From: a virus
Reading direction: 5' to 3' (one strand)
Length of the DNA stretch: 64,000 nt
Virus record (IMG/VR): IMGVR_UViG_3300048838_001106
Coordinates: 32,001-96,000 of that record
In this document: in pieces, positions 5,387-24,446 of the stretch
How the letters are laid out: every line of letters begins with the position of its first letter
Numbering within the stretch: the stretch's first letter is position 1
The notes under the pieces: model-generated
Database searches by the model: none
The model's input: the letters and a program-made list of their open reading frames with translations, nothing else
Told to the model about the DNA's origin: nothing
Translations under genes and position numbers: made by a program

Positions 5387-7812
5387 CAGAGCACCTTCGT
5401 CAGAGTAATCAACGATACGTCCGACAAATATCGGATAGTCCTGTCAGTAACACCGTAAACAGACGGATCTTCAAGGCGGCGATGCGGCAGTCCAGACGCT
5501 AGTAGCTGTGGCTTCAGAACTACTGCGTCGACTGACCGGTAAGGAATCTCTCTTCCGTCTGGGGCCAGCAAGACATAGTCGGCTGTGACGGGCGACTCTA
5601 CATACCCGACAACCGTTCGGTATGTGCTGTTGAAGTACGTGACTATGTCAGACAGATGCAAGACATCCTCTGTGGTTGGAAACGAAGAGATGTACGCTGC
5701 AACCTTTGCGCGCGCGTCATCCTCATCCAGCACTGTCAGAGCATTGCTCTTCAGGCCATAGCGTATGTTCAACGACACATACACAGGATGAAAGCCTCTG
5801 ACCATTGTGTCGGCGCAGATAACTCTGTTCTGTCTGTTAGACACGTAAGCATCTATTGCTGGGAAATTTAGAATCGTGTCGTACACCACACGGCAAGGGA
5901 ATCCGTCATACTTCTTCTTCTCCGACGTCTCCCACCAGAGTCTGTTTTCTGCGACGGTGGTGGCGAGAGGGTCATCTTGCTTCTCCACACCCACCTGTGA
6001 CGGAGACACGTAGCTTGTTATCGTAAACGGTCCTCGGTTATCTGCATTCACGGCTCTGGATATGTAGAGCTCCGACCCAATCATGCCTGCATTGAACACA
6101 GCCTGTTGTGCTGTGAAGACGTTGGCGTTGTTAAACGAACCACCCTGGCCTGTGTATGCTGGCGCAGGGCCCACCTCGACTGTCATGAACTGCTTAGAAG
6201 ACTGTGCCTCAAGAGGTTGCGAATTCCTAACGCGAAACTGAGCAGACGCGGCGCCTGGTGATGCTACTGGCTCTTGATTAACTCGGTTGACAAATTCTAC
6301 ACGCCCGGTAACCGCGTCAGTGTCTGGGTCTGCCGCGTTAAGCACCGACACCTCTCGGATAAGATACACCGGCTCCGACGGCAACAGCACGTGGCCGTCT
6401 TCTCGGTACTCTCGCGAGAATTCACCTGTGGTCGCTTCCAGGGTCTTCTGGTTGTATAGCGGCGCGTTGTTACCTATGGAGTAGATAACCACGTCAGACA
6501 ATATTTCAATCTGCAATCCGCTTTCGACCACGAGGGTTGCTGGCGACAGTGTTACCGAGTTCATGGCAGGGTCAACTGCGGTGATTAACCTGTCTGCATT
6601 GTTCGCGGCGTTAACCCCTCCTGCAATTCGAACATATCTCCCAAGATCAGATCCTGAAAAATTAGCTGCCGAACTTTGGAGTGTGTTTGCGTTAAGCGCT
6701 GCTCCGTCTGAATATGTAGCGGTGCCTCGGGGATATCCAGGTCGCACATCGGGGAATTCTTGCTTCGTTGACAGCTCTAGAAAGTGCCGTGTAACTCGCC
6801 CAATGACGTAAAGACTTCGCTCGGACGCAGACGCATTGATGTGTCTAAGTACATCCCCTGCCGCCACGCCGGTGGCGCGCCAGTCTGGTACGGAAGTGTC
6901 CTTGAATATGCGGATGCCTGGCCTGGTGTCTGTGAAGATGCCTCCAACAACGCCTTCGAAAACGCGACGAGTTGCGATTGGAGTAGCGACATACACGTCA
7001 ATATGTCCGCCAGTGTGAACGTTGTAGGGAGACGCCAGGTCTGCGCGATCTCGTTGCATGGAGGGATCTCCATGACCTATGACGGTCAAGAAATCTATGA
7101 GCGGGAACAGATCGGTGAGCACCGTGTCAATACTTCTCTCCGAGTTCAGATCCCGGACAGTTATTGCAGTAGCAGCACGCGCAAGGAGTTCTTCTGTCGT
7201 CTCTGCGTCTTTGGCACCGACAAACGCAGCGTCATTTTCCATGCCGCGCACGAATCGATTAAAAGACGGAACGTCAGCGAACGTTCCAGGTGGCAACTCG
7301 TACGCGGACCCTGGCCGCTCAGCAATGACCGGAACACGCAGTGCGTACCCGGTTATGAAGCCATTGGTGTTGTACCTTGGGGTCAAGTTGTTCGCCGAGT
7401 AGACCAGCGCACCAACGTTGTCCAAAAGAAACCGGCGGCCACTAGTCCGGGTGAACACGGCATTGGCAGGCACCGCCCCATCGTGAAGTTCTGAGAAAAT
7501 GATCAGAGCCGTGCCGCGAACCTGTCGCCCTGTTCGACGGGTAATAAACCAGTTGGCAACCAGGTTGTCTACCGCATCATCATAGTCTTCTAGTGATGCC
7601 AGCTGGGACACAGTTCTAAGACTTGTGCCCAGCCTGACGTTCCTGGCCTCTGCCCGCAGCAGTGCAATCGAACTGGCCAGCGCGCTTATCGTATGGTCAC
7701 GCGTTATCGACCCCGCAGACAGGTCAGCATCGGGCAACAACTCTGACAAAAAACCTACCAGGAAGTCTTCTGCCTTCTTCCTGTCAGCATCAGATATAAC
7801 GAGCTCTGTCAT
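5386..7812 (-). CDS. Baseplate J-like (gp6-type) wedge protein
   Basis: LVANWFITRRTG and GAKDAETTEELLARA match baseplate-J N-terminal motifs; follows a gp25-like gene. Confidence 0.8.
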   Translation of the reverse strand: MTELVISDADRKKAEDFLVGFLSELLPDADLSAGSITRDHTISALASSIALLRAEARNVRLGTSLRTVSQLASLEDYDDAVDNLVANWFITRRTGRQVRGTALIIFSELHDGAVPANAVFTRTSGRRFLLDNVGALVYSANNLTPRYNTNGFITGYALRVPVIAERPGSAYELPPGTFADVPSFNRFVRGMENDAAFVGAKDAETTEELLARAATAITVRDLNSERSIDTVLTDLFPLIDFLTVIGHGDPSMQRDRADLASPYNVHTGGHIDVYVATPIATRRVFEGVVGGIFTDTRPGIRIFKDTSVPDWRATGVAAGDVLRHINASASERSLYVIGRVTRHFLELSTKQEFPDVRPGYPRGTATYSDGAALNANTLQSSAANFSGSDLGRYVRIAGGVNAANNADRLITAVDPAMNSVTLSPATLVVESGLQIEILSDVVIYSIGNNAPLYNQKTLEATTGEFSREYREDGHVLLPSEPVYLIREVSVLNAADPDTDAVTGRVEFVNRVNQEPVASPGAASAQFRVRNSQPLEAQSSKQFMTVEVGPAPAYTGQGGSFNNANVFTAQQAVFNAGMIGSELYISRAVNADNRGPFTITSYVSPSQVGVEKQDDPLATTVAENRLWWETSEKKKYDGFPCRVVYDTILNFPAIDAYVSNRQNRVICADTMVRGFHPVYVSLNIRYGLKSNALTVLDEDDARAKVAAYISSFPTTEDVLHLSDIVTYFNSTYRTVVGYVESPVTADYVLLAPDGREIPYRSVDAVVLKPQLLASGLPHRRLEDPSVYGVTDRTIRYLSDVSLITLTKVL

Positions 7813-7813
7813 A

Positions 7814-8269
7814 CTATCTCCTGATAGATCGCGTCGGCAGAATGAATTGAAGAGCCCTGCCCGCCTGATTCTTTAACAAGATGGTTACTTCGAAGCCGGC
7901 GCCGTTGTCGTCTACAACTAACGAGGTCATCTTGGCAGACTGCAATATGTCTTCAGGATCATCGCTTGGGTCCATGCTCTGGTATCTGAATAGTGTAGCT
8001 TCTGCTTTGGATACAGCTGTCGACACAATGTCCTGCAGGTCTTGCGCGGAAGTTACGTTCGACCCTATGAGAGCCGGGAAACGTGTGCCATTAGACCTGT
8101 CAGACAGATCTGTACCCTCTAATGTCATCAGTGTCTTCAGGAACTTGTTGATAAGCTTCTGAAAACCTCTAATGCCTATGTGCTTCTGAAACCCATAGAT
8201 GAACGTGGCATAGCCATCGACTTGCTCAGACGCGGGCTTCAGCTGGATGTATGTGTCAAATGTACTCAT
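7814..8269 (-). CDS. gp25/GpW-like baseplate wedge (sheath initiator) protein
   Basis: IRGFQKLINKFLKTLMTLEGTD...GT pattern; 151 aa; immediately upstream of baseplate J. Confidence 0.7.
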   Translation of the reverse strand: MSTFDTYIQLKPASEQVDGYATFIYGFQKHIGIRGFQKLINKFLKTLMTLEGTDLSDRSNGTRFPALIGSNVTSAQDLQDIVSTAVSKAEATLFRYQSMDPSDDPEDILQSAKMTSLVVDDNGAGFEVTILLKNQAGRALQFILPTRSIRR

Positions 8270-9927
8270 CAGTCACCGAGAGGGGCGTCGCCATATCGAA
8301 CATCATAACTCTTTTCGATACGTTTGCGCACCTCAGGATAATTCAAACTGGCGGTGTCGTACACTTGTTTTCTGGTGACGTTGGCAAGTGCCTCGTCTCT
8401 CATCAGCCCTGAGGTTATATCGTACATGCTTCCAAGCACCGCGTACTGCGACGGAGAGGTAGCGTCCTCTCTGCTCTCAGCCACACTGTTCATGACCTTG
8501 TTTATTGGTGACGTAGGCGACACATACGGGTCAGTTGGCAGAGGAGAATTTACCAGCATGGCAATAGGATCAATGCGGTAGCTGTTCGCGTTGCCAACTG
8601 CTGTCAGCCTGTTTGATTCCAACGGTCTGCCCTGAATGAGCTGTCGCTGTACCAGTATTTCAAAGTGGAGGTGCGGCGTTCGCACAGAGTTGTGCGGAAG
8701 AACTTTGCCGCCGGACTTTCGCCCCTGCGTAATGCCTGCCAGACCGATTGGTTGTGCCCGTGTAACACGATCCCCTGTCTTTACAAAGAACTTGGACATG
8801 TGAGCATAGCGCGAGCTGAACCCGTTATTGTGGTCAATGTAAACCACGAGGCCGTAAGACTCGCTGACGTCTGCCCGCACCACCACCCCGTCAGCTATTG
8901 CGTACACAGGCTGGTTGGGGTTGTTCTGCGTCAGGAAGTCCACGCCCTTGTGCAAACGCACACGCTGTTGTCCTGTGACGGGGTCAATGCCAAGACGCTC
9001 AGCCCCAGCATTCCCTGTAGACACTGCCTTCGTGCGGCGCTTCTGGAAAGGACTCAGCACCTGAATCGTTGTGAGAGGCCATACAAGTCCCAGTGCCTTG
9101 TTGTCATCGACTGACAGGGTAAAAGTTTTTACGCTGTCATCGTTCAGAATATAGTCGATGATCCGCGTGGACGCGGCGTTGGCTTCGTTAACTCTGAGAC
9201 CATCAAACGTCGCTTCATACCGTGTCGTAAACGCCTGAATGTCAATCTGGATTTTCTTAGTGCGCGCAGCACTGACGCGTCTTACTTCAACGGCGGCTTC
9301 TGCGCCAACCTCTCCGCCCTGCACTCCCCACACAGAGAAGTCACCAGCAGACCTGTTGCACAACGGCAGTCTGTATGCAGAGGGCGGTGTGTTGACAGCG
9401 CCGGACGGCAGCGTCTGCGCAACAGACACAAACTGCTCTGCGTTGTTAGACCACTTAGACATGTTCGCGCGCATGCGTTGCATGTACGTGAACACCGCGC
9501 CATTCCCCCACACCGTGTTCAGATACTCGTCCGCTGCCGCATCGCCATCGCCGATGAGTTTGATGTCTAAGTACGTCGCAACTACGTCGTCCCTTGTCCC
9601 CCATAGAAGAGCCATAGCTTCGTAGTTGTAACCGTGTATCTCGGCGTAGCTCTCCATGTATTGCAGGAAAGCCGTGACGGCCTCAGATGGTTTGCCGACA
9701 TAATCTACAGGCTTGCTGTTGTTAACCAGCGCTGCCTTGCGCTCGTCGATACCGAACAGTCCCGCAGATGTGTTGTTGTTGACCGAAAAATCTGGGTCAA
9801 GACCTGACTGATAGTCTGCAACTGCAAGAACAAACCAATCAGGATACAGGTACTCTGTAAGCCCTGTGTCCTCCCTGACTTTTGGAAGAATGACGGTCCG
9901 CAGTTGTGTTTCAATTTCGGACGCCAT
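8269..9927 (-). CDS. Tail-associated peptidoglycan hydrolase: lytic-transglycosylase-like N-terminus plus M23 peptidase
   Basis: M23 motifs HKGVDF (HxxxD), YAHM and PHLHFEI (HxH); N-terminal AVADYQSG...SAGLFGI resembles SLT motifs I/II. Confidence 0.85.
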   Translation of the reverse strand: MASEIETQLRTVILPKVREDTGLTEYLYPDWFVLAVADYQSGLDPDFSVNNNTSAGLFGIDERKAALVNNSKPVDYVGKPSEAVTAFLQYMESYAEIHGYNYEAMALLWGTRDDVVATYLDIKLIGDGDAAADEYLNTVWGNGAVFTYMQRMRANMSKWSNNAEQFVSVAQTLPSGAVNTPPSAYRLPLCNRSAGDFSVWGVQGGEVGAEAAVEVRRVSAARTKKIQIDIQAFTTRYEATFDGLRVNEANAASTRIIDYILNDDSVKTFTLSVDDNKALGLVWPLTTIQVLSPFQKRRTKAVSTGNAGAERLGIDPVTGQQRVRLHKGVDFLTQNNPNQPVYAIADGVVVRADVSESYGLVVYIDHNNGFSSRYAHMSKFFVKTGDRVTRAQPIGLAGITQGRKSGGKVLPHNSVRTPHLHFEILVQRQLIQGRPLESNRLTAVGNANSYRIDPIAMLVNSPLPTDPYVSPTSPINKVMNSVAESREDATSPSQYAVLGSMYDITSGLMRDEALANVTRKQVYDTASLNYPEVRKRIEKSYDVRYGDAPLGD

Positions 9928-9936: not shown

Positions 9937-10413
9937 TTAGCCGCGTGCTTGGTTGTACAAAGCGCGGAGCTTGGACTCAGTATCGAAGTCCGTACCAAGA
10001 TACTGGTTCGACGCATTTCGAAGATCGTTCTGCCACGTGTCGGCGTCAGTCATTCCATAGCCTAGACCCACAGCACCCGCGCCTGCTGCGCCTACGCCGG
10101 CTGCGCCTTGCGCTCCCTGCATGATTTGTTTCCGCAAATGAGCCTCTGCCGGGTCTCCGATAACTTCGAACGCACCGTCCATCGCTGGCTGCATATTCCG
10201 GAGCGCTTTGACATTCTGCGGCAGGTCCATCATCGCCTGCATCCTGCCAGCAGTCTTTGTCTGCTGTGCAGACTCCACCACAAGCTGTGCCATCTTCATG
10301 AGTGCTGGGTGGCCAGACGACGCGGCGTGATTGACGAAGTCAACAGGGTCAACATTGTGCTCTGCGAGCTTTGTCATAATGCCGTGAACGTATGCTGTTT
10401 TCTGTGTGCTCAT
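9937..10413 (-). CDS. Leader-bearing glycine-zipper protein (GTDF family)
   Basis: Likely start MSTQKTAYVHG; GAAGVGAAGAGAVGLG then YGMTDADT...NDLRNASNQYLGTDF. Confidence 0.75.
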   Translation of the reverse strand: MSTQKTAYVHGIMTKLAEHNVDPVDFVNHAASSGHPALMKMAQLVVESAQQTKTAGRMQAMMDLPQNVKALRNMQPAMDGAFEVIGDPAEAHLRKQIMQGAQGAAGVGAAGAGAVGLGYGMTDADTWQNDLRNASNQYLGTDFDTESKLRALYNQARG

Positions 10414-10438
10414 TTTATATCTTCCTTTCAAGTGGTGG

Positions 10439-10882
10439 TTAACTGACCAGATTTCCAAACCGTGATTTCGTGCTAAAGTCTGTGCCTAGCATTCTATTAG
10501 ACGCCCGAACTGCCCTGTTCTCCATAGTGTTTGCGTCTCCCATACCGTATGCAAGGCCTCCCACACCAAGTGCTGTGCCCCCGAGACGCTTAGCGCCTTT
10601 TCCAGCTTGGCTACGAAGAACATCCGAGCGCTCGGTAGCCCTGTCTGCTGCTCGTGTGTTTCCGGTTGCTCTGTTGTCCAATGCCCTTTCTGTGTGGATT
10701 TTTGACTTCTTCCAGTCTCCATGAATGCGGCGCGGGTCCATCGACTTCACAAAGTCTACGCCTTTATCGACAAGCTTCCCTGCCTGTGTACCAAGGTTGG
10801 CAACCTTCTCTGTGGTCTCAATGTCAAGCCCTGAGCATGACAGGACATGTAACATACCGATACTATAAAAATCATTGCTCAT
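10439..10882 (-). CDS. Leader-bearing glycine-zipper protein (GTDF family)
   Basis: YSIGMLHVLSCSGL...EKVA leader; C-terminal YGMGDANT...ASNRMLGTDF. Confidence 0.75.
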   Translation of the reverse strand: MSNDFYSIGMLHVLSCSGLDIETTEKVANLGTQAGKLVDKGVDFVKSMDPRRIHGDWKKSKIHTERALDNRATGNTRAADRATERSDVLRSQAGKGAKRLGGTALGVGGLAYGMGDANTMENRAVRASNRMLGTDFSTKSRFGNLVS

Positions 10883-10937
10883 GTCTGCCTCTTGATCCCT
10901 TTGTTATCTTTATCATAAACCTGGTTACGGCGTAAAG

Positions 10938-12155
10938 TTACCATTGTATTGACGCGCCGAATCCTCTGGAATTGCTTGTGTCGTACATGCTCTTGCCTGC
11001 CAGTCCTGCGCCGAGCCCCGCTGCGGCTAGGCCTGCAATGCGCGCGGCGCGTCCTCCGGTGTTGATCTTGCGCAACACATCGTCGCGAGTCAACACGGGG
11101 TCAATCAATCCTGTGTACTGCTTAGCCCAGTCTTGGTACGTCGGCTTCATTTTCACGCTTGCAGCTTCTAAAATTGGGTCTCCGCTACCGCCGCGGCGTA
11201 AGGGTGCGCCGTCTTCCAAGATCTCGTTCAACCATGCGCGCCTGTCAGATGCGGGCATTTTATTGACATCCGGCTCACCATAATGAAGTGCGCGTTCTTC
11301 AACAAATTGTGTGATTTTTCTTTCTGCATAGTCCCCAAGACTGTCAGTGGTGTACAAAGGTGTCTTCCTGTACAAGTCGTCTTGAATGTGCCCGGCGTCG
11401 TCCCCCCTAATTGCAGCTCTCAGATGCGCAACGTATTGTTCTGGGTCTGCGCTCTCCATATGCCTATCGGCGCGCCCGAGCGCGAAACTGAGGTGTGGAT
11501 TGTCAACCGAGTCGCGCATGATTCTTCGAAACTCTTTGCCGTCCACAGGCATGCTGTCTACATCCGTGCCCTCTGGCAACGTTGCGGCCATCTGCCTTGC
11601 AGTTTCGTATCTTCTTCGTAAAAAATCCTTTCTGAAATCTTCTGGGTCTGCGCCCTCTGTTTCCCGAAACATATGCTTTGCTGCTTGAAGAGGCCCCTCT
11701 GAGAAATTTTTGTAGTGCTCTTCGCTAGCGGAGTCGAATGGCTGCAGCAGTCCAGCGCTCTGCAAAAGCGGAGACAATTTCCCTGTCCGGACCTTCTTAA
11801 CTAATTCTTGTCCCGTGATTGTGCTGCCGTCTCGCAGCGGCATTTTCTGATTAAGCAGGTCAGAACTCATGTCGGCGTACTCGCCTAAGGACATGCCTGA
11901 TCCTGTCAGTCGCTTGTATTCCCTCAACTTATCTGCAGTGTCATCGGCCAGGATTGACCCCTTCGTGTAATTCACGGCTCGATGTCCTGCTACTCCCGCG
12001 CCAAGTCCTGCACCTGCACCTGCCACTCCTAAATACATCTCAGGCTGATCTGCCAGATTCTCTCTCTGAGAACCAAAAGACACATTGAAAGCAGTTTTAG
12101 TGCGGCGCAGCCCCGCTGCGTGCAATGTCTGGCTGTATCCAGCGTTATAAAACAT
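10938..12155 (-). CDS. Leader-bearing protein with glycine zippers near both ends
   Basis: YNAGYSQTLHAAGL...TKTA leader; GVAGAGAGLGAGVAG near the N-terminus and AGLAAAGLGAGLAG near the C-terminus. Confidence 0.75.
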   Translation of the reverse strand: MFYNAGYSQTLHAAGLRRTKTAFNVSFGSQRENLADQPEMYLGVAGAGAGLGAGVAGHRAVNYTKGSILADDTADKLREYKRLTGSGMSLGEYADMSSDLLNQKMPLRDGSTITGQELVKKVRTGKLSPLLQSAGLLQPFDSASEEHYKNFSEGPLQAAKHMFRETEGADPEDFRKDFLRRRYETARQMAATLPEGTDVDSMPVDGKEFRRIMRDSVDNPHLSFALGRADRHMESADPEQYVAHLRAAIRGDDAGHIQDDLYRKTPLYTTDSLGDYAERKITQFVEERALHYGEPDVNKMPASDRRAWLNEILEDGAPLRRGGSGDPILEAASVKMKPTYQDWAKQYTGLIDPVLTRDDVLRKINTGGRAARIAGLAAAGLGAGLAGKSMYDTSNSRGFGASIQW

Positions 12156-12176
12156 GGCTTACTCCGTAAACAAAGA

Positions 12177-12947
12177 TCACCCGCCAAATGCGTTGCTGAA
12201 GCGAGACTGCGTTTTGAAGTCGGTGCCGAGATTCTTGTTGGCAGCCTGTCGAATCTTGTTGCCAGTCGTGTCGGCGTCGCCCATGCCGTATGCTGTAGCG
12301 CCCGCAGCTCCGAGGCCTGCTGTGCCCGCTCCTCCAATTATTGCGCCCTGTACGCCACGTCTTGCGCGGCCTTCTGTCTCCAGAGCCCGTAGAAGTTCGA
12401 AGTGCACCGCATTGTTTTGAAAATTGTCGGTGATCCCCGACAGCTCAGACGCTTCTCGGAAGCTTGGGTGGTGTAGATCTACGTTGTACCTGTTTCCCTG
12501 CTCATTGAGAGTCCTCTCAGCTCCGAACCCGTAACTCGATGGCTCTTGGCGTTTTCTTGAAATGAAGTCGTCATCTAGTCTACGTAGGTTCGATGGCGCA
12601 TTCCATATGTCGCTTAGCCACTCGCCAGGGCCGCCGCCCATGCTACGCCTTAGTGCGTAATCCATGGGTTCCACGCCGGGTATCATATCGCCTATCTCGC
12701 GTGCCGTTGCGTAAGGGTCGCTTAGTCTTTTTAGACCTCCCATCACTGTGTGTGCGCCAAAAAGGCCGTCCAATGGTACGCGTGCATTCACTTCTTTTTG
12801 TATGCTGGGTGCGTCAAAAAGATCGCCTACAGCACCTCCGGCTCCACGTATTGCCGCCGATGCCTGTTTGCTGTCTGACACCATGTTCAGATCTAACAGC
12901 CCCGCCGCACTAGCAACCTTCGCTAGCCCAAATGTGTAAGCGTCCAT
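12177..12947 (-). CDS. Leader-bearing glycine-zipper protein (GTDF family)
   Basis: YTFGLAKVASAAGL...KQA leader; C-terminal YGMGDADT...AANKNLGTDF; AGGAG SD upstream. Confidence 0.75.
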   Translation of the reverse strand: MDAYTFGLAKVASAAGLLDLNMVSDSKQASAAIRGAGGAVGDLFDAPSIQKEVNARVPLDGLFGAHTVMGGLKRLSDPYATAREIGDMIPGVEPMDYALRRSMGGGPGEWLSDIWNAPSNLRRLDDDFISRKRQEPSSYGFGAERTLNEQGNRYNVDLHHPSFREASELSGITDNFQNNAVHFELLRALETEGRARRGVQGAIIGGAGTAGLGAAGATAYGMGDADTTGNKIRQAANKNLGTDFKTQSRFSNAFGG

Positions 12948-12958
12948 CCTAAACTCCT

Positions 12959-14857
12959 TCAGTCCATAATCTCTGAAACTTTGTCGATAATCCGTCGCTT
13001 TCTATACGAAAGCTGTCCCTGCGTCAGGCCCGTCTTCGCTGCGAGCTGTGGATTGCTCAAGATAGGCTTTCCGGAATAGCCTGTCGAGTGTTCAAAGATG
13101 AGTTTGTCGATTGGGTCCATGTCGAAGTATAGCATGTCCACCAGGCCGTCGTCGGAATCTGAGCCCCACACACTCTTTCGCTCGAACAACCCTGCTCCTG
13201 TATCGAGCGACTCAATCAACTCTGGCCTCATTGAGCGCTGCACATCGGCGACCATCTTGCGAGACCACCCTAAGTGATCTGCCAGCTCGACGTCCGTCGG
13301 CTCACGGCCGTTCAGACTCATCAACTCTTCGGTGCTTCTGTGATACGCATTGAACTTGAGCTTCTTGTACTCCGGCACACGCACAGCGTCTTGATGTGTG
13401 TAGACCTCGCGACTGATCTTCTTGAGCCTGTTTGTGACATGCGTTGCCAGCGCTGCGCCGGCGTTTGGGTTGTACGATTTGATGGCTTCGAGAGCCAGGC
13501 CTTTCGCTTTTGTCTCCAGGACAGGCCTGGAGATTGCGCCTGCCCATCGATTGACCTCGGACTGAATAACCGGATCAAGCTGCTGCATCAGAGGCTGAAG
13601 TGTGTGTGGGCCGGGGTTCGCTTTGTAGGCCTCCCACAGTTCGATGTCGCGGGTTTTTACGCTGGATCTTTTATGCATGCCTGTTGTTACTAAGTTCTCT
13701 AGCTCTAGCATGTCACCTCCAGGTAACGGCTTCCACCTGCGGCTCAATGCGGGTCTTAGTGCGTGATCTGTGACAATCTTCTCATAAGTAGGTGAGTTGT
13801 TAACTCTTCGCGCAGGGGAGTATCCACTATTCTGATGCCGTATGTGGTCTATACCTTCGGGCACGATGTCCCCTTCTTCGTAATGGCGTTGCCACGCGCT
13901 CTGATCTTTTTTAGGGATCTTTCGAGTGTCGTACTCAAACACGCGGCTTGTACCGTCGCGGTGTCTTTCCCAGGCAGTTCCTGGGATATGAGACGCCGCG
14001 GCGTACTCCATGGCCACTTCAGGATGTGCAGTTGTCCATCGCAAGTCGTCCGGCGCCGAAAACCTACTTCGCGGGTTGTGCGTTGTACCGTGGTATGCAG
14101 CGCTGCTCGGGGCGTAACCCTCTCCCATAATTGGTTGACCGTCTCTGGTTACTGTATTGGGAGACATCACTTTTTTATTGGGATGTCCGGCCAGTGTCTT
14201 AGCTCTAGCCGACGGTGTCTCGTCCATACGTCTCTTTAGCGTCACCGCGTCGTTCATGCTCCACGCAGACTGTTCTCGCAATGCGTTAAACTCTTCAATT
14301 TTAGCTTTGTTTACGGGGTCGTCAAAGTACTTGCTCTTTATCCTGGGGGTCATGTGGTCAACTAGCGGTGCTTCGGTCTGAGGTATGCCCAAGTGTGTTT
14401 GGAGCGTGCGTTTAAGTTTTCCAGCAGCGCCAAGTGCTGATGACAACAGAGTCGGCGGTGATGCAGTGTGTGGTATGTTTGCTTCTTGTGCCGCCAATGC
14501 GTCGAAGAAGATTCGGTTATACTGGTTTCGGATTTCGGTATTAAACCGGTCTAAGTCTTCTCGAGACACGACACGAACTTCTCTGCGCGGCACCACACCT
14601 CGCTTTAACGCTTCTTCGCGCATACGTGCTGCAGGGAAGTACTCAGGAGATAATTTCTCTGCGTAATCCACAAGTGCGGCCGCTGTGTTGCTTGGAACGC
14701 CGGTCCAGTCATTTGTGCGCATTGCATTCATTAAAGTGTCGGCAGTCACGTCGCTAGGAATAGCCCCAGCACCCTGAAGTTTTTGGATCATCTTGGTGCT
14801 GATTGCGGTCTTTTCCATACCAGGTGGTGGGCCGACCGTCTTATTCTGCATCGTCAT
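12959..14857 (-). CDS. ADP-ribosyltransferase-like domain fused to a sigma-70-family sigma factor
   Basis: aa ~400-632: region 2 (LALEAIKSYNPNAGAALATHV), VRVPE, region 3 (GREPTDVELADHLG), region 4 HTH (LSNPQLAAKTGLTQGQLS). aa ~253-375: YHGT...WTTAHPEVAMEYA...VFEY...TYE, ART-like. Confidence 0.8.
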   Translation of the reverse strand: MTMQNKTVGPPPGMEKTAISTKMIQKLQGAGAIPSDVTADTLMNAMRTNDWTGVPSNTAAALVDYAEKLSPEYFPAARMREEALKRGVVPRREVRVVSREDLDRFNTEIRNQYNRIFFDALAAQEANIPHTASPPTLLSSALGAAGKLKRTLQTHLGIPQTEAPLVDHMTPRIKSKYFDDPVNKAKIEEFNALREQSAWSMNDAVTLKRRMDETPSARAKTLAGHPNKKVMSPNTVTRDGQPIMGEGYAPSSAAYHGTTHNPRSRFSAPDDLRWTTAHPEVAMEYAAASHIPGTAWERHRDGTSRVFEYDTRKIPKKDQSAWQRHYEEGDIVPEGIDHIRHQNSGYSPARRVNNSPTYEKIVTDHALRPALSRRWKPLPGGDMLELENLVTTGMHKRSSVKTRDIELWEAYKANPGPHTLQPLMQQLDPVIQSEVNRWAGAISRPVLETKAKGLALEAIKSYNPNAGAALATHVTNRLKKISREVYTHQDAVRVPEYKKLKFNAYHRSTEELMSLNGREPTDVELADHLGWSRKMVADVQRSMRPELIESLDTGAGLFERKSVWGSDSDDGLVDMLYFDMDPIDKLIFEHSTGYSGKPILSNPQLAAKTGLTQGQLSYRKRRIIDKVSEIMD

Positions 14858-14865
14858 ACGTCTCC

Positions 14866-15639
14866 TTACATCCCTTCTCGAACTGTGTTCGCCGCGTCTA
14901 CTGCAAGTCCACCAGCTAGCATCGCACTTAATGCCCCTCCTGCAAATCGACCTGGGTGCTTGCGAAGATACGTCCCCATGTCACCCAGAGACTCTCTCAG
15001 CACGCTGTGTTCTTTGTTGCCTACGCCGCCTCGAATGTACTTGGGGTCGACGGGAAATTCCGACGTGGCAGCTACGGTATGCTTACTGGCTTCCCACCCT
15101 GATGGCGTGTCTTGACCCATAAGAAAGTCAGGGTCGTGACTAAACCTGTCAGCGAACTGCGTGTACGGCATGTCTATGGTGACTGTGCGGGGGTGTCCAA
15201 AGAGTAATTCTTTAGCTTTGCCACGTGCCAGTCTAGCTTCCACTCCGTCAAGGTCGGTTCCTGCCAATGCGTTTAATTCATCCTCATTCATCACCGAAAA
15301 CGTGTTCGCAATAACCGACTGTGGCGTAACGTGAATCTTGTTTTTGCTGTTTTCGACGAAGTTTCCGTCGATGAACGATGCTCCTGTTCCGCCGTACTCA
15401 GGGCGCAGCCCTTCCCGAAGGATTGACTTGTGAGCATCATCAGACGCCGTACCGTGATACAGACGCTGCTGATTAGTCAAGCGGCTGTACGCGCCTGGTG
15501 CCAGCGCGCCAGCTATGCCTACCTGGGCAGCCGCGCCTGCGTAGTCGCCTACGCCCGGCTTATCCGGTTGTTCCAGGCCCAGGCTTTCCATGATGCCTGC
15601 TGTTTTGATGATGAGGTTGTAGCCATCGGTGTAGTTCAT
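14866..15639 (-). CDS. Leader-bearing ADP-ribosyltransferase-fold protein (H-G-T type)
   Basis: RLYHGT...SILREGLRP...IHVT...VDPKYI resembles Tpt1/KptA/PARP-like ART folds; YTDGYNLIIKTAGI leader; flanked by Gly/Ala hydrophobic segments. Confidence 0.7.
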   Translation of the reverse strand: MNYTDGYNLIIKTAGIMESLGLEQPDKPGVGDYAGAAAQVGIAGALAPGAYSRLTNQQRLYHGTASDDAHKSILREGLRPEYGGTGASFIDGNFVENSKNKIHVTPQSVIANTFSVMNEDELNALAGTDLDGVEARLARGKAKELLFGHPRTVTIDMPYTQFADRFSHDPDFLMGQDTPSGWEASKHTVAATSEFPVDPKYIRGGVGNKEHSVLRESLGDMGTYLRKHPGRFAGGALSAMLAGGLAVDAANTVREGM

Positions 15640-15642
15640 AAT

Positions 15643-16653
15643 TTACTTCTGCGTTACAGGCTTCATTGCGTAGCCAACTTGGTCTCCGTCACGTGCGCGG
15701 CGAACGGTGTACTCTGCGACGGGCTCAGGGATCATGCTGGGCGTTACCATGGTCTCATAAGTTGGGTGTCTTCGGCCGGCGATGACGTCGGATCTAGTCC
15801 TGGGATGCCACTTGCCGTCTTGTAATGGAGTCTCAGGTCTATTCACCAACTTGCCGTCCGCAAACCATTGGCGGCTGTACTCACCGGTTGGGTCGGAAAT
15901 GCGATTTGTTCTGAGCTGGTTTAGGTCCTCTGCGCGCGCGTTTATGTATTCTTGCGGCCCAATTCCTTGCCAATCTGCAGATGCCTCGGGGATAGGGCTG
16001 CCTAGTACTGGATCTTGTTTGAAGTCTGACTTTCTGTAGGCAAACATTCGGTTCGTATGTGGGCTATACCCACCCAGAGCAGCGTCACCGCTGGCGTACC
16101 CCGCTGCAACTTCGGGATGCCTGGACATATAAAACAGCTCTTTCTCTGAAGCCACATCTACTGGGTTGCCTCGATATAATATGTCGCCCGGCGCGTCTGA
16201 GTTTTTTCGAATGAACTCGGCATTGCCAGCAGATGGTACGAACGACTCACCTGGTTTTGGTGCGTGAGCTCCACTAAACCGCCGGTCAAGAGCTTGGCGT
16301 GCTGTGGCCTGTTGCAGTGTACTACTACTACGCGTTCTCAACACGTCTCGGTACGCATGGTGCGGAATCGTTAGTCTTGCTGGAGGACTATTATCATGGA
16401 ATATGCGCGCCCATGCAGGACCGAGTGATTTTTCGATTTCCGCGGTTCCTAGCAACGCATTTGAAAAAGCGTTTTGTCCCTCATGACCGGGTACAAAAGC
16501 ATTGATATTCCGGTTCGGTCCTTGAAACGATTTAGCGTATTCTGGATATTGCTCAGATAGACGCTTGTATAGTTCGCGCATCGGGCGATTCATCGCCACC
16601 TTTTCCACCAACGCTACACCTTCCCAGTATGCACTGCTCATGCTCGTACTCAC
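15643..16653 (-). CDS. Leader-bearing ADP-ribosyltransferase-fold protein (R-S-E-like)
   Basis: ILYRG...FYMSRHPEVAAGYA...RMFAY...PTYE; shares HPEVAxxYA and PTYE with the 12959 protein. Confidence 0.6.
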   Translation of the reverse strand: MSTSMSSAYWEGVALVEKVAMNRPMRELYKRLSEQYPEYAKSFQGPNRNINAFVPGHEGQNAFSNALLGTAEIEKSLGPAWARIFHDNSPPARLTIPHHAYRDVLRTRSSSTLQQATARQALDRRFSGAHAPKPGESFVPSAGNAEFIRKNSDAPGDILYRGNPVDVASEKELFYMSRHPEVAAGYASGDAALGGYSPHTNRMFAYRKSDFKQDPVLGSPIPEASADWQGIGPQEYINARAEDLNQLRTNRISDPTGEYSRQWFADGKLVNRPETPLQDGKWHPRTRSDVIAGRRHPTYETMVTPSMIPEPVAEYTVRRARDGDQVGYAMKPVTQK

Positions 16654-16671
16654 ATCCCGTTATTAAAAGAT

Positions 16672-16926
16672 CTACATCATCCATCGTCTGTAATTCGACT
16701 CATTTTCGAGGTCCGTTCCAAGTGCGTCGTTCGAAATATTTCGAAGATCGTTAGCTACCGTTCTAGCGTCATTCCACGGGGCGAAGCCGCCGGTGTCTAG
16801 TAGAATACCTGTTGTTCCCACTGCACCTAGAGCGGATGCGGCATGTAGATGGGACAATTCTGGCAGCTTCGTCATCAACCCCGCAACCTTCATTGCGCGC
16901 CGATATCCCATCTCGTAGCTATTCAT
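16672..16926 (-). CDS. Minimal leader + hydrophobic helix + GTD[FL]-motif protein
   Basis: YEMGYRRAMKVAGL leader; DART...NDLRNISNDALGTDL. Confidence 0.7.
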   Translation of the reverse strand: MNSYEMGYRRAMKVAGLMTKLPELSHLHAASALGAVGTTGILLDTGGFAPWNDARTVANDLRNISNDALGTDLENESNYRRWMM

Positions 16927-16929: not shown

Positions 16930-19104
16930 TTATCCTCTATAGGCAGTTTGTGTCTGGTACACTCGAGCCCTGTAGGCTAGAAGCCTCTCCTGCCACGACC
17001 TCGATGAATCTGATTCGCTTATCCTACACGGATTGCCATCTACGTCTACGCTTTCTTGCTGAGCAATATCCTCGTTAGACACAAGAATTTGGACGTAATA
17101 CGGAGCGCCGTGCCCCTCACTTGGGCTGCTGGCGGATACTAACCCGCGTCTGGTTCCTCGGTCGCCTTGTGCATCGATGAATTGTTCAAGTGTGCAGATG
17201 GGTCTAGCGGCATATGTAAATGCAGCCTCCGGGTCATCCATAAATCTGCGGTAGCCGGGAGTAAGGCGAAAGTCAGGCGCTTCGCCGGTCACAGGCGACG
17301 ACACCACGCGCTCCGCGTTTTCCTTGTTCAATTGAATGGGTTCAATTATGCCTTCATCGCCTCGCAAGCCGAACACCTTCAGCAGGTCAAACAGCACCTT
17401 GTCTTTTGGCTTGTCGGCGCCGTAGAACATCCGCTGGTAATACTCGGACGCTTTTGCTTTTGTTTGGAAAACATCACGTATCGCCTGCACGGGGTGTTCT
17501 GGAGCGATAGATGGTGTGTTGTCGGTGATCTCGTCTATCCCCTCCTTGACCATCTGGTCCATCAGCAGGTCAATGACTTCGGATATCGGAGTGGCATACG
17601 TCATCGACACCTGTGTTGACATGTTCTCCTGCGAGAATGAATGATTGATTTGCGTAACATATGCGATGAGATGAACGCTTGAGTGTTCATTGTCGATAAT
17701 TGCGCTCGGGCATCCTGGTACTATGTATGGATTGTATGGTCCTGATGTGCCCGCATTTCGCTGTGCGGCGCGTGTCCGAAGATGCTCGTACCTGCAGAAC
17801 TTGTACTGAAGCGCGGCGTTCGCTGCACTGGTTCTTTCTGTCTGTTGAAGAAACATGTACCACGTAGGTGTGTTCATGTTGTTGTACACTGGGCCTTTGA
17901 AACGCTCTTCTTTGGTTATGAAGTTGAACACGCTCTCCTCGGAGTGATCCCCTGTTTTCTTCCGAGACAAGCGTTCGTTGGCTTCTGCCGGGTAACCCAC
18001 AGTAAGAGCCCTTGTTAGAACGTCGTTCGGTGACTGCTGCGCGAGCATATTCAGGACATGTGGATTGCCAAGGTATGTGCGCGTCGGCTGACGGGCGTAA
18101 GATTCGTCGTAGGAGAACTGCTCAATCATGCTTGGCCATAGAACGTTGAATCTTGGCGGAATACCAAATATGGTCTGAGGCTTAGTCATGTACGACGCCA
18201 CAACGTTGCGCAGTCTTGGTGGACCACCAGCTACCGTGTCTTCTCCAAAAGGCTCTCGCGTTGTCTCGTCCACCAGCAAGTAGGGCGCGGTGGGCAACAT
18301 CAGAAGCTCGTAATACATCGCCTGAAAGATGGTGGTAACGATGTTGTAGAACGATCCCTGGTCAAGCTGATTGCCCATCTTCGCTAAAGCCTCGATAGCG
18401 GATGTCGACTGCGTGGCTTTTAAGATAGGAAAAATGTGCGGCTCTGCATCTGCGTCGACGCCCACCAGGGATTCGACAAGCACAGATGGTACAAAGCGAT
18501 CTTTGAATTTGACCCTGTCCACCCATGGCTTAAACCATTGTTTGATAACCTCGGCCTGGTCAGACGACGGCATGGTGTCGCCAGACAGGTACTTGATCAG
18601 GCCCTCAACAAACTCAAATGGCCTTCGAATTTTATTGCCGCTCACAAAACCTGTTGTCAGCAAGCCATGCGTCGGTGCGAATGGATTGTTGACAAGCGTT
18701 GTGCCTCCTGTCGTGGACGTCTGCCCCTGAATAATGGTGTTCAGAGACTTAACGACATAAGGGAACAACCTGGTCAGAGACTCCATGAAGTCTACTGCTG
18801 TGTACGATATGTTACGTCCGCCTCCAGTTGACGAGTATGAGAAATTCGTAATCTCACCGTCAAAGGCAAGTCTGAACTCTGGCTTCTTGCCTTCAACTCG
18901 TGCCTGATGCGGATCTAAAGCAAATATCGTTAGCCGAACACGGTCGTCCCTGCCTATTCTTTGAAACACCCTGTCTGCCGGAAAGGTGACAGTTGCAGTG
19001 GGTATTGACCATACTCCGTAGGATATCTGTGCAGATATTGCGGGGCACTGCACGCCTTGCACATACACCAACCAACTCGCCCTGTTGACATACGCTGCAG
19101 TCAT
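16930..19104 (-). CDS. Probable baseplate hub (gp27/late-control-D-like) protein
   Basis: 724 aa downstream of the tape measure; N-terminal beta pattern (LVYVQGV...ATVTF...FDGEI) and YVTQINHSF near the end. Confidence 0.55.
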   Translation of the reverse strand: MTAAYVNRASWLVYVQGVQCPAISAQISYGVWSIPTATVTFPADRVFQRIGRDDRVRLTIFALDPHQARVEGKKPEFRLAFDGEITNFSYSSTGGGRNISYTAVDFMESLTRLFPYVVKSLNTIIQGQTSTTGGTTLVNNPFAPTHGLLTTGFVSGNKIRRPFEFVEGLIKYLSGDTMPSSDQAEVIKQWFKPWVDRVKFKDRFVPSVLVESLVGVDADAEPHIFPILKATQSTSAIEALAKMGNQLDQGSFYNIVTTIFQAMYYELLMLPTAPYLLVDETTREPFGEDTVAGGPPRLRNVVASYMTKPQTIFGIPPRFNVLWPSMIEQFSYDESYARQPTRTYLGNPHVLNMLAQQSPNDVLTRALTVGYPAEANERLSRKKTGDHSEESVFNFITKEERFKGPVYNNMNTPTWYMFLQQTERTSAANAALQYKFCRYEHLRTRAAQRNAGTSGPYNPYIVPGCPSAIIDNEHSSVHLIAYVTQINHSFSQENMSTQVSMTYATPISEVIDLLMDQMVKEGIDEITDNTPSIAPEHPVQAIRDVFQTKAKASEYYQRMFYGADKPKDKVLFDLLKVFGLRGDEGIIEPIQLNKENAERVVSSPVTGEAPDFRLTPGYRRFMDDPEAAFTYAARPICTLEQFIDAQGDRGTRRGLVSASSPSEGHGAPYYVQILVSNEDIAQQESVDVDGNPCRISESDSSRSWQERLLAYRARVYQTQTAYRG

Positions 19105-20548: not shown

Positions 20549-20745
20549 GGACGCCTCTTCGTGACTGTGACTACCATCGGTCTGGTCTCGTGAACCATGC
20601 GTAGACTTCGCGCCACCAGACTGTCGACGTTAACAGCGGCTGGCGTCATTCTTCGGTGGTTGTCGATAATATTCTCGGTATACAGCCTGATAGTTTCAGG
20701 GCCTGATGGGTGCACTATTTTGAGTCTAGATGTCATAGTGGTCAA
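20545..20745 (-). CDS. Small hypothetical protein
   Basis: 66 aa; 4-bp overlaps with both neighbours. Confidence 0.55.
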   Translation of the reverse strand: MTTMTSRLKIVHPSGPETIRLYTENIIDNHRRMTPAAVNVDSLVARSLRMVHETRPMVVTVTKRRP

Positions 20746-23700: not shown

Positions 23701-24446
23701 ATGCCCATGCCTATCAGGCCGCCCACGTGTCCTAACGCCATCTTAGCAGCGCCATCTGCATAGCTTTGGTAGCCCTGCTGCTGTGCTCTTGTCATGTCTA
23801 GCGATTGATTCAGAGCGGCGTCGTAAGGCCTGGAAAAAGAGAACTCTCTTGTACGCTGAAGGTCTGAAACGGGCAGCATAGCCAGCGGAGGTCCTACGCC
23901 TCCAAGTCCCATGGGAGCTGCTGTACTCGGTCTATCTAGCATCTGACTGCGAAACACACCCATGTTGTGTGATGTCATCATGCCAGCGCCTGGGTACATC
24001 ATGCTCGGGTCCATGTATGCTGCGGTAGACGCGTTCATAATCTGCTGACTGCGTGCCTGAGCCAGCGCAGCCTGCATGCCAAACGGGTCTGACCCTGCAT
24101 GCATCATAGGCTGCTGCATCGGTGGCATCATAGGCTGCTGCATGAATGGCATGGGGGCTGGTTGATACGCCGGTTGCGGCGCCTGATACTGCGATGTAGG
24201 TGCTACACTCATTGGCGGCACGTACGGCATTACTGGCGCAGGTGGAGGTATCTGCATGGGAATAAACGGTGCACTTGCCGAGGCACCATACATAGCCATC
24301 ACCTGTGGAGGCACAAAATCGGTAATTCTTGGAAGAGCAGGCGGCGGGGTAATCCCAAAGTTAGACACTGTGTTGGACATACCCTGGTAGCCCATGGTCA
24401 CGTCCGCCATCACATCCGATAGTGATCTTCCAAAATCGTCAGACAT
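20742..24446 (-). CDS. Tail tape measure protein
   Basis: 1234 aa, Ala/Gly/Gln/Met-rich helical with a Gly-rich hydrophobic segment; directly follows the chaperone pair. Confidence 0.75.
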   Translation of the reverse strand: MSDDFGRSLSDVMADVTMGYQGMSNTVSNFGITPPPALPRITDFVPPQVMAMYGASASAPFIPMQIPPPAPVMPYVPPMSVAPTSQYQAPQPAYQPAPMPFMQQPMMPPMQQPMMHAGSDPFGMQAALAQARSQQIMNASTAAYMDPSMMYPGAGMMTSHNMGVFRSQMLDRPSTAAPMGLGGVGPPLAMLPVSDLQRTREFSFSRPYDAALNQSLDMTRAQQQGYQSYADGAAKMALGHVGGLIGMGIGAVGGAAVGNPIAGSGIGAVAGEMLQFVPGADRAVAAVMRPALERRYDAIQTQYASRAYMLSSNADTDISGTGLSSSAAQRMTYGMDRLASSTNGDMNRKDITRLVQMSGEQGLLDFEQNSEQIIKATKNIMSLVSTMSQITGDPDFQANIQKIGKLRQLGMGMNKMDEALRNMEAYSRMAGVSVEEAMQTQGMQGAVTYQQLGLAGAQGLQAGVHALGATKQLMAAGTFNERDLAMYGGESGVAQMMTEVGGASISALSQYILPFLVDEGKGGRLSINKDRLRDLQTGKTTFHDALQAASGRTDLSQKAWQNLAGNQRRELTNALGDMSGPAGAQRMMFDMALTLSERNPNLDVQSILNMNVGEDAAAVLMRQTDKTYQKNIMAQMNKELERQQFEASQRTAPEFGFLARHGMRLPSPIDSMQRSWSDTIEGMEESAKLEAVGVRRAVREGMQTPGVSRKEALLYADKAVNEGSDKFSMFDEDLTYRDELMGRGTIRSFGARVIQGSYDHMAHDGNEALFGTGRYAMSNSRAGRSLGALRNYLDPSETDAAALDKLAGSYGKPLSSEDRAAARASLRAKIGDDAVLAKAQVTIGKKMASEVGMGITDPGMIALSDFREAVPGWDNLTEAEQRAFMDTAALAGGSKAEQYQTFHTEKALVANATKLGREFTGAGGGANANAALSAMFGGEIFKDVEIDDLNDSQRAAMEVMLMLTGDDASEQGYYLALAAALESTGGMKSIAQQLHKSLLETEGDAHISKLESARAKFKGLSKDHQEALMVQADRILNVPRVEDRVAVSNGRADITKLKAGALSKIGDTRQAAAFDNLLTSSREAAAVLQGAGANGEVAFKKDDNLKSHAARLQKATGVNAAALQKTMGASNFSKFQSLDLEKDEDMLTALDLLGDMGMGGGELDIKTKGVGATSEGITNQEIAIEAQSQFFSRLNASVDYNARALEDNTRALLGTNNKAKQAATKMVEDPNAPD
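24101..24143. repeat. 19-bp direct repeat x2 encoding MQQPMM
   Basis: gcatcataggctgctgcat at 24101-24119 and 24125-24143. Confidence 0.85.

Follow-up and report, generated by a model that had tools for sequence, protein, structure and literature searches.

Why should four small phage genes keep nearly the same C-terminus and share so little of what precedes it? What might such a terminus do, and where would it do it? The question arises from a window of 64,000 nucleotides, the whole stretch of DNA that was analysed, which belongs to the 156-kb genome of an uncultured, contractile-tailed phage. The four genes lie within a cassette of eight, all on one strand and separated by small gaps, between the genes for a baseplate hub and an M23 peptidase. 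They represent a family of small, modular proteins that is confined to one lineage and occurs in the virion gene modules of contractile-tailed phages related to Salmonella phage Arash. The explanation that we tentatively favour is that the proteins are loaded into the virion and ejected from it, with the C-terminal hairpin acting as a tethered docking element.

Four genes with a common C-terminal unit

All four peptides picked out in a preliminary description of this DNA are indeed present, on the minus strand, as the C-termini of open reading frames of 84, 256, 147 and 158 aa, and the positions given with them mark the ends of the four genes rather than the motif itself. The common unit begins with about 20 Gly/Ala-rich residues, followed by [YG]-x-x-D-A-x-T-x-x-N...[SA]N..LGTD[FL]..[ST].S, and an alignment of the four proteins has 12 invariant columns (G, G, D-A, T, N, N, L-G-T-D, S) at an identity of 44-51%. 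With hmmsearch the family profile finds the 158-, 256-, 147- and 84-aa proteins at E-values of 3e-27, 7e-26, 5e-25 and 1e-20, respectively, no other protein of the region doing better than E 0.04, and a genome-wide profile search gives exactly these four copies in the 156 kb. The similarity among the four C-terminal units is far above chance.

The remainder of each protein is another matter. The middles had been called unrelated, which is borne out in that BLAST comparison of the N-terminal parts gave nothing better than E ~0.1 beyond their first ~20 residues. The smallest build is the 84-aa gene (16672-16926, minus strand), rightly described as near-minimal, which holds leader A (MNSYEMGYRRAMKVAGL), the Gly/Ala stretch and the C-terminal module (residues 23-84; 16675-16860, minus strand) and nothing more. 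The 256-aa protein (12177-12947, minus strand), of which P0008 is a shorter orthologue, has leader A (MDAYTFGLAKVASAAGL), a unique middle of ~170 aa and the unit at residues 194-256 (12180-12368, minus strand). In the 147-aa protein (10439-10882, minus strand) a leader A-like start with EKVA at residues 25-28 and a short middle precede the unit (residues 86-147; 10442-10627, minus strand). The fourth gene (9937-10413, minus strand), whose 158 aa are counted from ATG, a 173-aa TTG form of this reading frame being unlikely, encodes a leader B three-helix domain (residues 1-55), a middle and the unit (residues 93-158; 9940-10137, minus strand). The AlphaFold2 model of this protein is confident for leader B (pLDDT 93-96 over residues 11-50) and continues with coil at residues 100-126, a helix at 127-138, a loop and a helix at 148-157. 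The C-terminal unit is thus modelled as a helix-loop-helix behind a Gly/Ala coil of pLDDT <50, at a low overall confidence for the unit (pLDDT 42-72). Trimer prediction with three copies of the unit returned a score of 0.02 (mark 0.42), which speaks neither for nor against self-association.

A family with swappable middles

A profile search with the C-terminal alignment found 59 clusters among 1.84 billion proteins. The LGTD-type core ends no more than 20 residues from the C-terminus in 54 of these, and within 12-13 residues of it in 41, while the near-invariant residues of the module (T, N, N, G, T, S, R) are polar helix caps. Members range from 70 to 576 aa and vary in number from genome to genome, and some, of 84 aa here and 70-99 aa elsewhere, have no middle at all, which implies that the chassis itself has a role. 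Nothing similar to the module was found in Pfam, PHROGs, the PDB or cultured phages. The only Pfam hit among the 59 family representatives was one weak glycine-zipper match (E 0.0018), the module profile gave chance-level hits against PDB sequences (enterovirus VP1 at E >=0.1), and Foldseek with the 158-aa model found nothing below E 0.9 among viral predicted structures. Among 50,697 cultured phage records there was no DNA similarity to the region and no tblastn match to two family members, and the names sought for ten family clusters were all 'hypothetical protein'. Judged by these searches, the C-terminal module is a new domain family, previously undescribed and restricted to one phage lineage.

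The preliminary interpretation combined a conserved chassis bearing a swappable insert with possible membrane insertion or hetero-oligomerisation, and it is the first of these that is supported. The C-terminal unit is kept in all 59 clusters and the middles vary, the 49 members whose middle is 40 aa or longer forming 35 BLAST clusters, such that inserts are not conserved across relatives. For instance, the relative L016 is syntenic with the window and its flanks are 40-60% identical, yet it has ten genes rather than eight between hub and peptidase, and only the leaders, the C-terminal module and a sigma domain are common to the two cassettes. That flanks so alike should enclose a different cassette supports the idea of chassis and insert. 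A second relative with conserved flanks has two genes in the cassette position, and in most of 39 relatives the sigma gene stands there alone.

The cassette and its setting in a contractile-tailed phage

Directly upstream of the cassette lies the gene for a 724-aa baseplate central hub of the gp27/Mu gp44/VgrG-N-like kind (16930-19104, minus strand), identified by fold alone, the AlphaFold2 model (pLDDT 74, pTM 0.79) matching the hubs of CIS, phi812, Mu gp44 and VgrG in a Foldseek search of the PDB (E 6e-10 to 1e-7). Directly downstream is a 552-aa M23 peptidase, a virion-type cell-wall hydrolase (8269-9927, minus strand; PF01551, E 6e-25). The genes for a 151-aa protein and an 808-aa gp6-like baseplate wedge protein (5386-8269, minus strand) resemble Arash gp12 and gp13; the latter matches phrog_6 (E 9e-14), and the gp25-like label given to the former, a homologue of the Arash structural protein gp12, derives from position and size only. 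A 1234-aa protein (20742-24446, minus strand), homologous to Arash gp4, is tape-measure-like as read by eye, with a Pro/Met/Gln-rich start, a Gly-rich hydrophobic segment and a long Ala/Gln-rich part, and gave no family match.

The cassette also contains genes without the module. The 336-aa protein (15643-16653, minus strand) has a leader-like start (AYWEGVALVEKVA) and no Pfam, PHROG or PDB sequence match; the 257-aa protein (14866-15639, minus strand) has leader A and Gly/Ala stretches near both ends and no family match; and the 405-aa protein (10938-12155, minus strand) combines a leader A-like start with Gly/Ala stretches at both ends. The 632-aa protein (12959-14857, minus strand) has an EKTA-type start, an N-terminal 400 aa to which nothing could be assigned and a sigma-70-like C-terminal domain (residues ~400-632; RpoS match E 2e-4), and is 77% identical to the stand-alone sigma of L016 and 31% to Arash gp10. 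This sigma-like domain is the sole Pfam or PHROGs match among all eight cassette proteins, and PDB sequence searches with the hub, the 1234-aa, 336-aa and 257-aa proteins and a conserved 253-aa protein were likewise negative. Promoter and terminator matches within the cassette are no more frequent than chance. Visual inspection suggested ADP-ribosyltransferase-like motifs in the 336-, 257- and 632-aa proteins; these found no support in sequence searches and are not claimed.

Where do relatives carry the module? In 8 of 11 contexts its gene lies between the sheath gene and the conserved pair encoding the 253-aa protein and the spike, and in 10 of 11 it is inside a tail gene cluster. A small gene is always present between the sheath and 253-aa genes, even where the module is absent. 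In one relative the module is part of the scaffold-position protein, whose gene lies between those for the protease and the major capsid protein. The gene order matches that of Salmonella phage Arash, a distant cultured relative, in whose virions mass spectrometry detected the hub-adjacent sigma factor gp10 with 100% coverage and 467 spectra, together with RNA polymerase beta and beta' (PMC10585845). Relatives have stand-alone sigma proteins that lack a leader, and since the Arash sigma is packaged, a leader is not required for every packaged protein.

It could still be that the module proteins never enter the particle, and are late assembly helpers, such as chaperones for the assembly of a Gly-rich tape measure or tube, or host-directed accessory proteins that merely sit within a structural operon. 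The small gene that is constant with or without the module fits a conserved assembly role, and Arash, the only relative with virion proteomics, itself lacks the module. We regard this as very improbable, however, given that copy number and middles turn over fast among close relatives, which is unusual for assembly chaperones, and that the leader is shared with proteins fused to a sigma-like domain whose stand-alone homologue is an Arash virion protein.

Leader, tether and hairpin

Virion loading with a docked C-terminus, the tentatively favoured explanation, would work through the three parts of the protein: an N-terminal leader, a hypervariable and mostly helical middle without recognisable domain, and a C-terminal unit in which a flexible Gly/Ala stretch of ~20 residues is followed by a polar helix-turn-helix hairpin of 35 residues that ends the protein. 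The leader, common to at least 10 other proteins of the genome, would take the protein into the assembling virion and would probably be removed by the head protease at a putative E-K-x-A site, and the proteins would exit together with the DNA. The hairpin on its tether may then serve as a common docking or association element that puts paralogues with differing middles at one site, which could be the tail tip or hub region, as gene position suggests, or the head interior, as the leader motif suggests.

Leader A is a helix of ~17 residues with the pattern Y-x-x-G-[YFML]-x-x-x-h-K-x-A-G-L, which starts 10 open reading frames of the genome, a 14-fold enrichment over the rest of the sequence. Leader B is a three-helix domain of ~50 residues (AYAxGhxxKhAEhxhxP..F), whose profile finds one window protein and six proteins of L016 (E 1e-20 to 3e-24). 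Both usually end with E-K-[T/V]-A, which is enriched 4-fold in the proteome and ~20-fold in the family: the form [EQ]K[TVIML]A occurs 26 times in the proteome against 6.0 +/- 2.4 expected, six of these in the scaffold-position protein, and 38 times in the module family against 1.8 expected, clustering at residues 3-25 and 40-48, where the leaders end. Otherwise E-K-x-A is concentrated in head-module proteins, as it is among the Arash proteins examined. Homology of leader B to the repeats of the scaffold-position proteins was considered and is not significant (E >0.1), the four-residue motif being all that they have in common. The cues to location are in conflict, with gene neighbourhood pointing to the tail and E-K-x-A to head-module proteins.

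The best-known parallel for such leaders is T4, in which the internal proteins IPI-III and Alt carry a short common N-terminal leader ending at a head-protease site, are packed into the virion and are injected with the DNA. Here, too, otherwise unrelated proteins share a short leader, and packaging, cleavage and injection would be predicted. In contrast, cleavage of the T4 leader, which has ~10 residues, is at (L/I)-x-E, T4 is not known to have a shared C-terminal module, and its internal proteins have no sequence similarity to the family; for these proteins and their capsid targeting sequence, reviews are available (PMC9026906, PMC9958956). In phages of the phiKZ/SPN3US type, paralogue families of ejection or inner-body proteins are described (PMC5694885, PMC7411985). 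The likeness lies in a large myophage with multisubunit RNA polymerase in the particle, as shown for the relative Arash, and in many fast-evolving paralogous virion proteins with propeptides, a virion location that is presumed for the module proteins. The phiKZ/SPN3US type differs in belonging to another lineage, with no detectable homology, and what is conserved in the present family is a very short element at the C-terminus.

For the C-terminal unit the parallels are different. Scaffolding proteins of P22 and 80alpha end in a coat-binding helix-turn-helix, and encapsulin cargo carries loading peptides; the module, too, is a short, conserved stretch at the C-terminus that follows a flexible, apparently disordered Gly/Ala linker, on diverse proteins and mostly at a fixed distance from the end. 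The hairpin could therefore be imagined as a peptide that binds the inner face of an HK97-fold capsid, the portal or the core, and keeps small processed proteins in the head, with which both its presence in one scaffold-position protein and the head-module bias of the leader-end motif agree. Yet module genes are mostly housed in tail clusters, the scaffold-position protein of the source genome lacks the module, a second targeting element alongside the leader would be redundant, and known scaffold elements and loading peptides have no sequence or profile likeness to it. A capsid-interior peptide thus seems improbable to us, and the docking partner of the hairpin, whatever its site, is putative.

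Cargo of the extracellular contractile injection systems PVC and Afp has N-terminal packing signals, and tape-measure proteins occupy the tube lumen. As with PVC/Afp cargo, the genes here are neighbours of those for the hub, spike and sheath of a contractile machine and encode proteins with a common leader; like tape-measure proteins, these have Gly-rich segments, as does the tape-measure-like protein of the same phage. They are not themselves tape measures in length or constancy, and 35 of 39 relatives have another, conserved protein of 1150-1340 aa for that role. The end of the 1234-aa protein looks similar by eye ('LLGTNNKAKQ'), and was rejected as a module copy (profile E 19).

Could the Gly/Ala stretch act in the membrane? 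The preliminary description saw a glycine zipper in a hydrophobic helix, and by analogy an entry channel is possible: once ejected, stretch and hairpin would insert into or associate with the host inner membrane and oligomerise, the paralogues co-assembling into a channel or patch for entry of DNA and protein. The cargo-free 84-aa member is what would be expected of a self-sufficient membrane-active peptide, relaxed [GAS]xxxGxxx[GAS] patterns occur in 46 of 59 members (two of the four window proteins), and hub, spike and cell-wall hydrolase genes are close by. The Gly-rich segment of the tape-measure-like protein is hydrophobic too, and a merely moderate hydrophobicity does not keep Gly/Ala-rich class II microcins, or the tape-measure segments of lambda and HK97, from acting at the inner membrane. 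Against this, the stretch (28% G, 25% A) has a mean Kyte-Doolittle hydropathy of 0.76, below that of transmembrane segments, and any 19-residue window above 1.6 is found in 4 of 59 family proteins only; a strict GxxxGxxxG is present in 12 of the 59, none of them among the four; AlphaFold2 predicts coil instead of helix; and the most conserved part is polar, without amphipathic membrane signature. Gly-zipper_YMGG, Gly-zipper_Omp and Rick_17kDa_Anti are alike in their Gly/Ala-rich runs, but the one weak Pfam match noted above lies outside the four window proteins. Neither the hydrophobic helix nor membrane insertion is therefore upheld. The hairpin unit is probably not a membrane-spanning glycine-zipper helix, and we consider membrane-active entry unlikely, if less so than a capsid-interior peptide.

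That tailed phages inject proteins is established, and to our knowledge only a few loading rules have been described (the T4 leader, phiKZ-type propeptides), each of them N-terminal. The family adds a small, sharply conserved C-terminal unit, with two kinds of leader and dozens of unrelated middles, in little-known large myophages whose particles contain a phage-encoded RNA polymerase and sigma factor. At its most far-reaching, hairpin and tether would be a transferable address tag, any leader-bearing protein that has it being docked at one particle site, whether hub, tube lumen or capsid interior, and entering the host with the DNA or before it. We think this a long shot; if true, the family would be a programmable means of protein delivery, of natural origin, in a tailed phage, and the quick turnover of its middles would mirror an arms race over delivered content. 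Were the module membrane-active, it would be relevant to the way in which contractile phages get across the inner membrane. In either case a new domain family is named, its boundaries are marked and its flanking genes are identified. If it is a docking tag, it would offer a second and independent means of positioning proteins in the virion, and would help to explain how this phage group swaps the proteins it delivers.

The cassette and its shared C-terminal unit

Eight genes run head to tail on the minus strand downstream of a baseplate hub gene (9937-16926 of the window). The ends quoted in the preliminary description belong to four of them, whose products measure 84, 256, 147 and 158 aa; these ends are alike, with 12 invariant columns and 44-51% identity over the last ~60 residues of their alignment. 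A family profile returns the four proteins at E 1e-20 to 3e-27, against a neighbourhood runner-up at E 0.04, and a profile search over the entire genome yields exactly four copies. The IMG/VR virus record of that genome (156,269 bases, of which the window covers 32001-96000) is judged 95% complete. The shared C-terminal unit of the four genes is real and far beyond chance. The regions N-terminal to it show, as had also been claimed, no similarity among the four proteins, with the exception of the first ~20 residues.

The unit consists of two parts, a Gly/Ala-rich stretch of about 20-28 residues (28% Gly, 25% Ala) followed by a polar block with the consensus Y-G-x-G-D-A-D-T-x-x-N-x-x-x-x-x-S-N-x-x-L-G-T-D-F-x-T-Q-S-R-x-G-x-x-x-G, in which A, T, N, N, G, T, S and R are near-invariant. 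The Gly/Ala stretch had been taken for a glycine-zipper helix, and a part in a membrane-active channel had been suggested as one possible role; some Gly/Ala-rich peptides do act on membranes. As a transmembrane glycine zipper the stretch is unconvincing: the mean Kyte-Doolittle hydropathy is 0.76, a 19-residue window rises above 1.6 in only 4 of the 59 proteins of the wider family, strict GxxxGxxxG is found in none of the four window proteins, and AlphaFold2 gives coil at pLDDT below 50 for residues 100-126 of the 158-aa protein, in a model built on 23 relatives. The low hydropathy and the coil prediction both weaken the channel reading, which we consider rather unlikely. After the coil, the model continues with a helix (127-138), a loop over L-G-T-D-F-D-T and a second helix (148-157), all at pLDDT 42-72, and in this low-confidence structure the conserved polar residues may cap the helices of what would be a small helix-turn-helix hairpin.

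Adjoining the cassette upstream is the 724-aa baseplate central hub (16930-19104, minus strand), the model of which (pLDDT 74, pTM 0.79) matches the hubs of contractile injection systems, phage phi812, Mu gp44, VgrG and T4 gp27 at Foldseek E 6e-10 to 1e-5. Further upstream lies a 1234-aa tape-measure-like protein (20742-24446, minus strand) that starts Pro/Met/Gln-rich, contains a single Gly-rich hydrophobic segment and continues as a long body rich in Ala and Gln. This probable tape measure matches no family, is homologous to gp4 of the Salmonella phage Arash, and is conserved in 35 of 39 relatives at a length of 1150-1340 aa. Downstream of the cassette are an M23 peptidase (E 6e-25), a 151-aa protein that we label gp25-like from its place in the gene order and its likeness to Arash gp12, and, beyond the latter, a gp6-like wedge protein. 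Promoter-like and terminator-like sites within the cassette are not above chance, which fits its co-transcription with the baseplate genes; the phage, however, probably uses its own polymerase. As a separate observation, ADP-ribosyltransferase-like motifs (LYRG...S.HPEVA; LYHGT) can be read in three cassette proteins (15643-16653, 14866-15639 and 13700-14300, minus strand), a reading that found no support in Pfam, PHROGs or PDB sequence searches.

A modular family among related phages

Among 1.84 billion representative proteins, a profile search places the C-terminal unit, or C-module, in 59 clusters, 23 of them at E 1e-10 or better, with members 70-576 residues long. The core motif up to LGT[DN] lies 12-13 residues from the C-terminus in 41 of the 59 and within 20 in 54. 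In 49 members the middle, counted from residue 50 to the start of the Gly/Ala stretch, is 40 residues or longer, and BLAST sorts these middles into 35 clusters: hypervariable middles are combined with a conserved C-terminal unit. None of the 59 contains a Pfam domain, the ten clusters for which names were looked up yielded only 'hypothetical protein', and there were no C-module relatives in PDB sequences, Pfam, PHROGs or cultured phages. Whole-unit repeats also occur, with three copies in one family protein and two in another. The 576-aa member P0002 (L009:10001-11731) has three tandem units of complete domain, Gly/Ala stretch and C-module, and is either three family members fused or a polyprotein.

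In the syntenic locus L016 the hub, peptidase, 151-aa and gp6-like homologues are 38-60% identical to those of the window, and ten genes rather than eight lie between hub and peptidase. The C-module is present in four of the ten, three of which have middles unrelated to any window protein; the fourth, of 150 aa, is 36% identical to the 158-aa window protein in a full-length alignment. The remaining L016 cassette genes have leaders and Gly/Ala ends without the C-module. Together with the 59-cluster family, this comparison upholds the idea of a conserved chassis with a swappable insert. The only well-conserved part of the cassette between L016 and the window is a sigma-70-like domain (77%), which in the window (12959-14857, minus strand) is fused to a leader and a 400-aa N-terminal part of no recognised kind. 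Such sigma-70-like genes also lie at L016:7892-8653 and L021:12752-13471 and in loci of the series L025-L063. Of the 39 IMG/VR contigs that carry a hub homologue, 36 have a sigma-70-like gene directly after the hub gene, the usual order being tape-measure-like gene, 307-aa homologue, small gene, hub, sigma, 320-480-aa protein, 151-aa homologue and gp6-like gene. Expansion of the cassette is confined to the closest relatives of the window (L016, L025, L029); another relative has two genes at this site, sigma being one.

A C-module gene near the hub was seen in 0 of the 39 contigs. Over 11 contexts, such genes stand between the sheath and 253-aa genes in eight (L008, L009, L014, L017, L020, L077, L078, L079), after the hub in two (window, L016) and within a scaffold-position protein after the protease gene in one (L015), so C-module genes are mobile among virion gene clusters. 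The 120-150 kb region of this genome encodes the 871-aa sheath (phrog_279, E 6e-6), the conserved 253-aa protein and the major capsid protein (genome 133686-134591; phrog_2522, E 7e-7). A 659-aa protein containing a head-protease-like domain and a 497-aa protein, taken as the spike, are also encoded there; the L008 homologue of the latter has weak matches to baseplate/gp5-like PHROGs. Its post-sheath slot holds a 281-aa Gly-rich protein without a C-module (G000:C1:124352-125197; L018:8352-9197), made of two repeats of 'RRPFLEK[IL]A' followed by some 100 residues very rich in Gly. In more distant relatives this slot is never without a small gene. Its product in most of them is Gly-rich or of low complexity, starting like a leader but ending differently; in the three most distant it is not Gly-rich. 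The post-sheath protein of one more distant relative (L071:9996-10637) has the longer kind of leader (leader B) and, after it, a tandem array of about six ~16-residue units (N-P-T-x-M-x-R-x-N-x-L-x-G). The C-module may have originated from repeats of this sort, which recall its D-A-D-T..N....LG half.

Leaders and a putative processing boundary

A leader of one of two kinds opens all eight cassette proteins and most family members. Leader A is a ~17-residue helix, Y-x-x-G-[YFML]-x-x-x-h-K-x-A-G-L, and leader B a ~50-residue domain (AYAxGhxxKhAEhxhxP..F...), a three-helix bundle in the AlphaFold2 model (pLDDT 93-96). The leader A pattern is 14-fold enriched at ORF starts relative to the rest of protein sequence and begins 10 ORFs of the genome. 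Four of these belong to the cassette; the other six form a second cluster at 95.6-101.7 kb of the genome (window 63647-64000 and G000:C1:95647-101675; example start YIDGYNSVVKVAGLEKTA), where none of the genes has a C-module.

Both leaders usually end in E-K-[T/V]-A. The related pattern [EQ]K[TVIML]A, which looks like a processing code, is 4-fold enriched in the proteome, with 26 occurrences where shuffles give 6.0 +/- 2.4. The 59 family proteins contain it 38 times (1.8 expected), in clusters at residues 3-25 and 40-48. Six copies lie in a 223-aa scaffold-position protein (G000:C1:136785-137456) and four in a 266-aa protein (G000:C1:141251-142051, L019) between the gene of the 835-aa portal-like protein and the protease-like gene. 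Since the leader B profile has no significant match to scaffold-position proteins, only the short motif is common to the two. The major capsid proteins of this genome (G000:C1:133686-134591), a relative (L015:13206-14111) and Arash (gp226) have K-E-A near residue 29 ([TV]-K-E-A), possibly a propeptide boundary of the leader-end type. Judged by these patterns, E-K-[T/V]-A resembles a boundary for processing or targeting, the simplest candidate being a head-protease site.

Proposed virion loading and docking

Arash and the three Vibrio phages D69, D148 and D181 are the nearest relatives in culture, with capsids 38-45% and sheaths ~30-33% identical. All four lack the C-module, and the contigs that carry it derive from environmental metagenomes. 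Arash retains the order of tape-measure-like gp4, gp6, hub-hydrolase fusion gp8, sigma gp10, gp12, gp13 and gp14, and has no C-module. Its virion proteome, obtained by mass spectrometry, comprises 116 proteins, with gp10, the homologue of the window's sigma-70-like protein, at 100% coverage and 467 spectra, and with hydrolase gp8 and RNA polymerase beta and beta' also among the most abundant (PMC10585845). Some of the 116 were probably carried over, so the proteome is moderate evidence; it indicates that hub-adjacent genes in this phage group encode particle-borne proteins. That the four genes encode non-virion helpers seems to us very improbable.

We tentatively favour, at somewhat less than even confidence, virion-loaded proteins that are ejected. 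The leader, common to many other proteins of the genome, would act as the loading signal and probably be removed at E-K-x-A; the loaded proteins would then leave the virion by ejection. In the C-terminal unit a flexibly tethered hairpin would serve for docking or association, bringing paralogues with different middles to one common site. Because members made of only leader, tether and hairpin exist, the chassis would have its own role and not be merely a tag. Where might the docking site lie? Gene position (hub, sheath, spike) points to the tail tip, and the leader motif and the one scaffold-position member point to the head, where a capsid-interior loading or retention peptide would also act; that last explanation we think quite doubtful.

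The family and its modularity are solid; the function proposed for the C-module is an inference. Phage proteins with common loading signals that get injected are of an already known kind; what is new is the C-terminal unit itself, together with its combination with two types of leader and its movement between tail and head gene clusters, and the family is previously undescribed.
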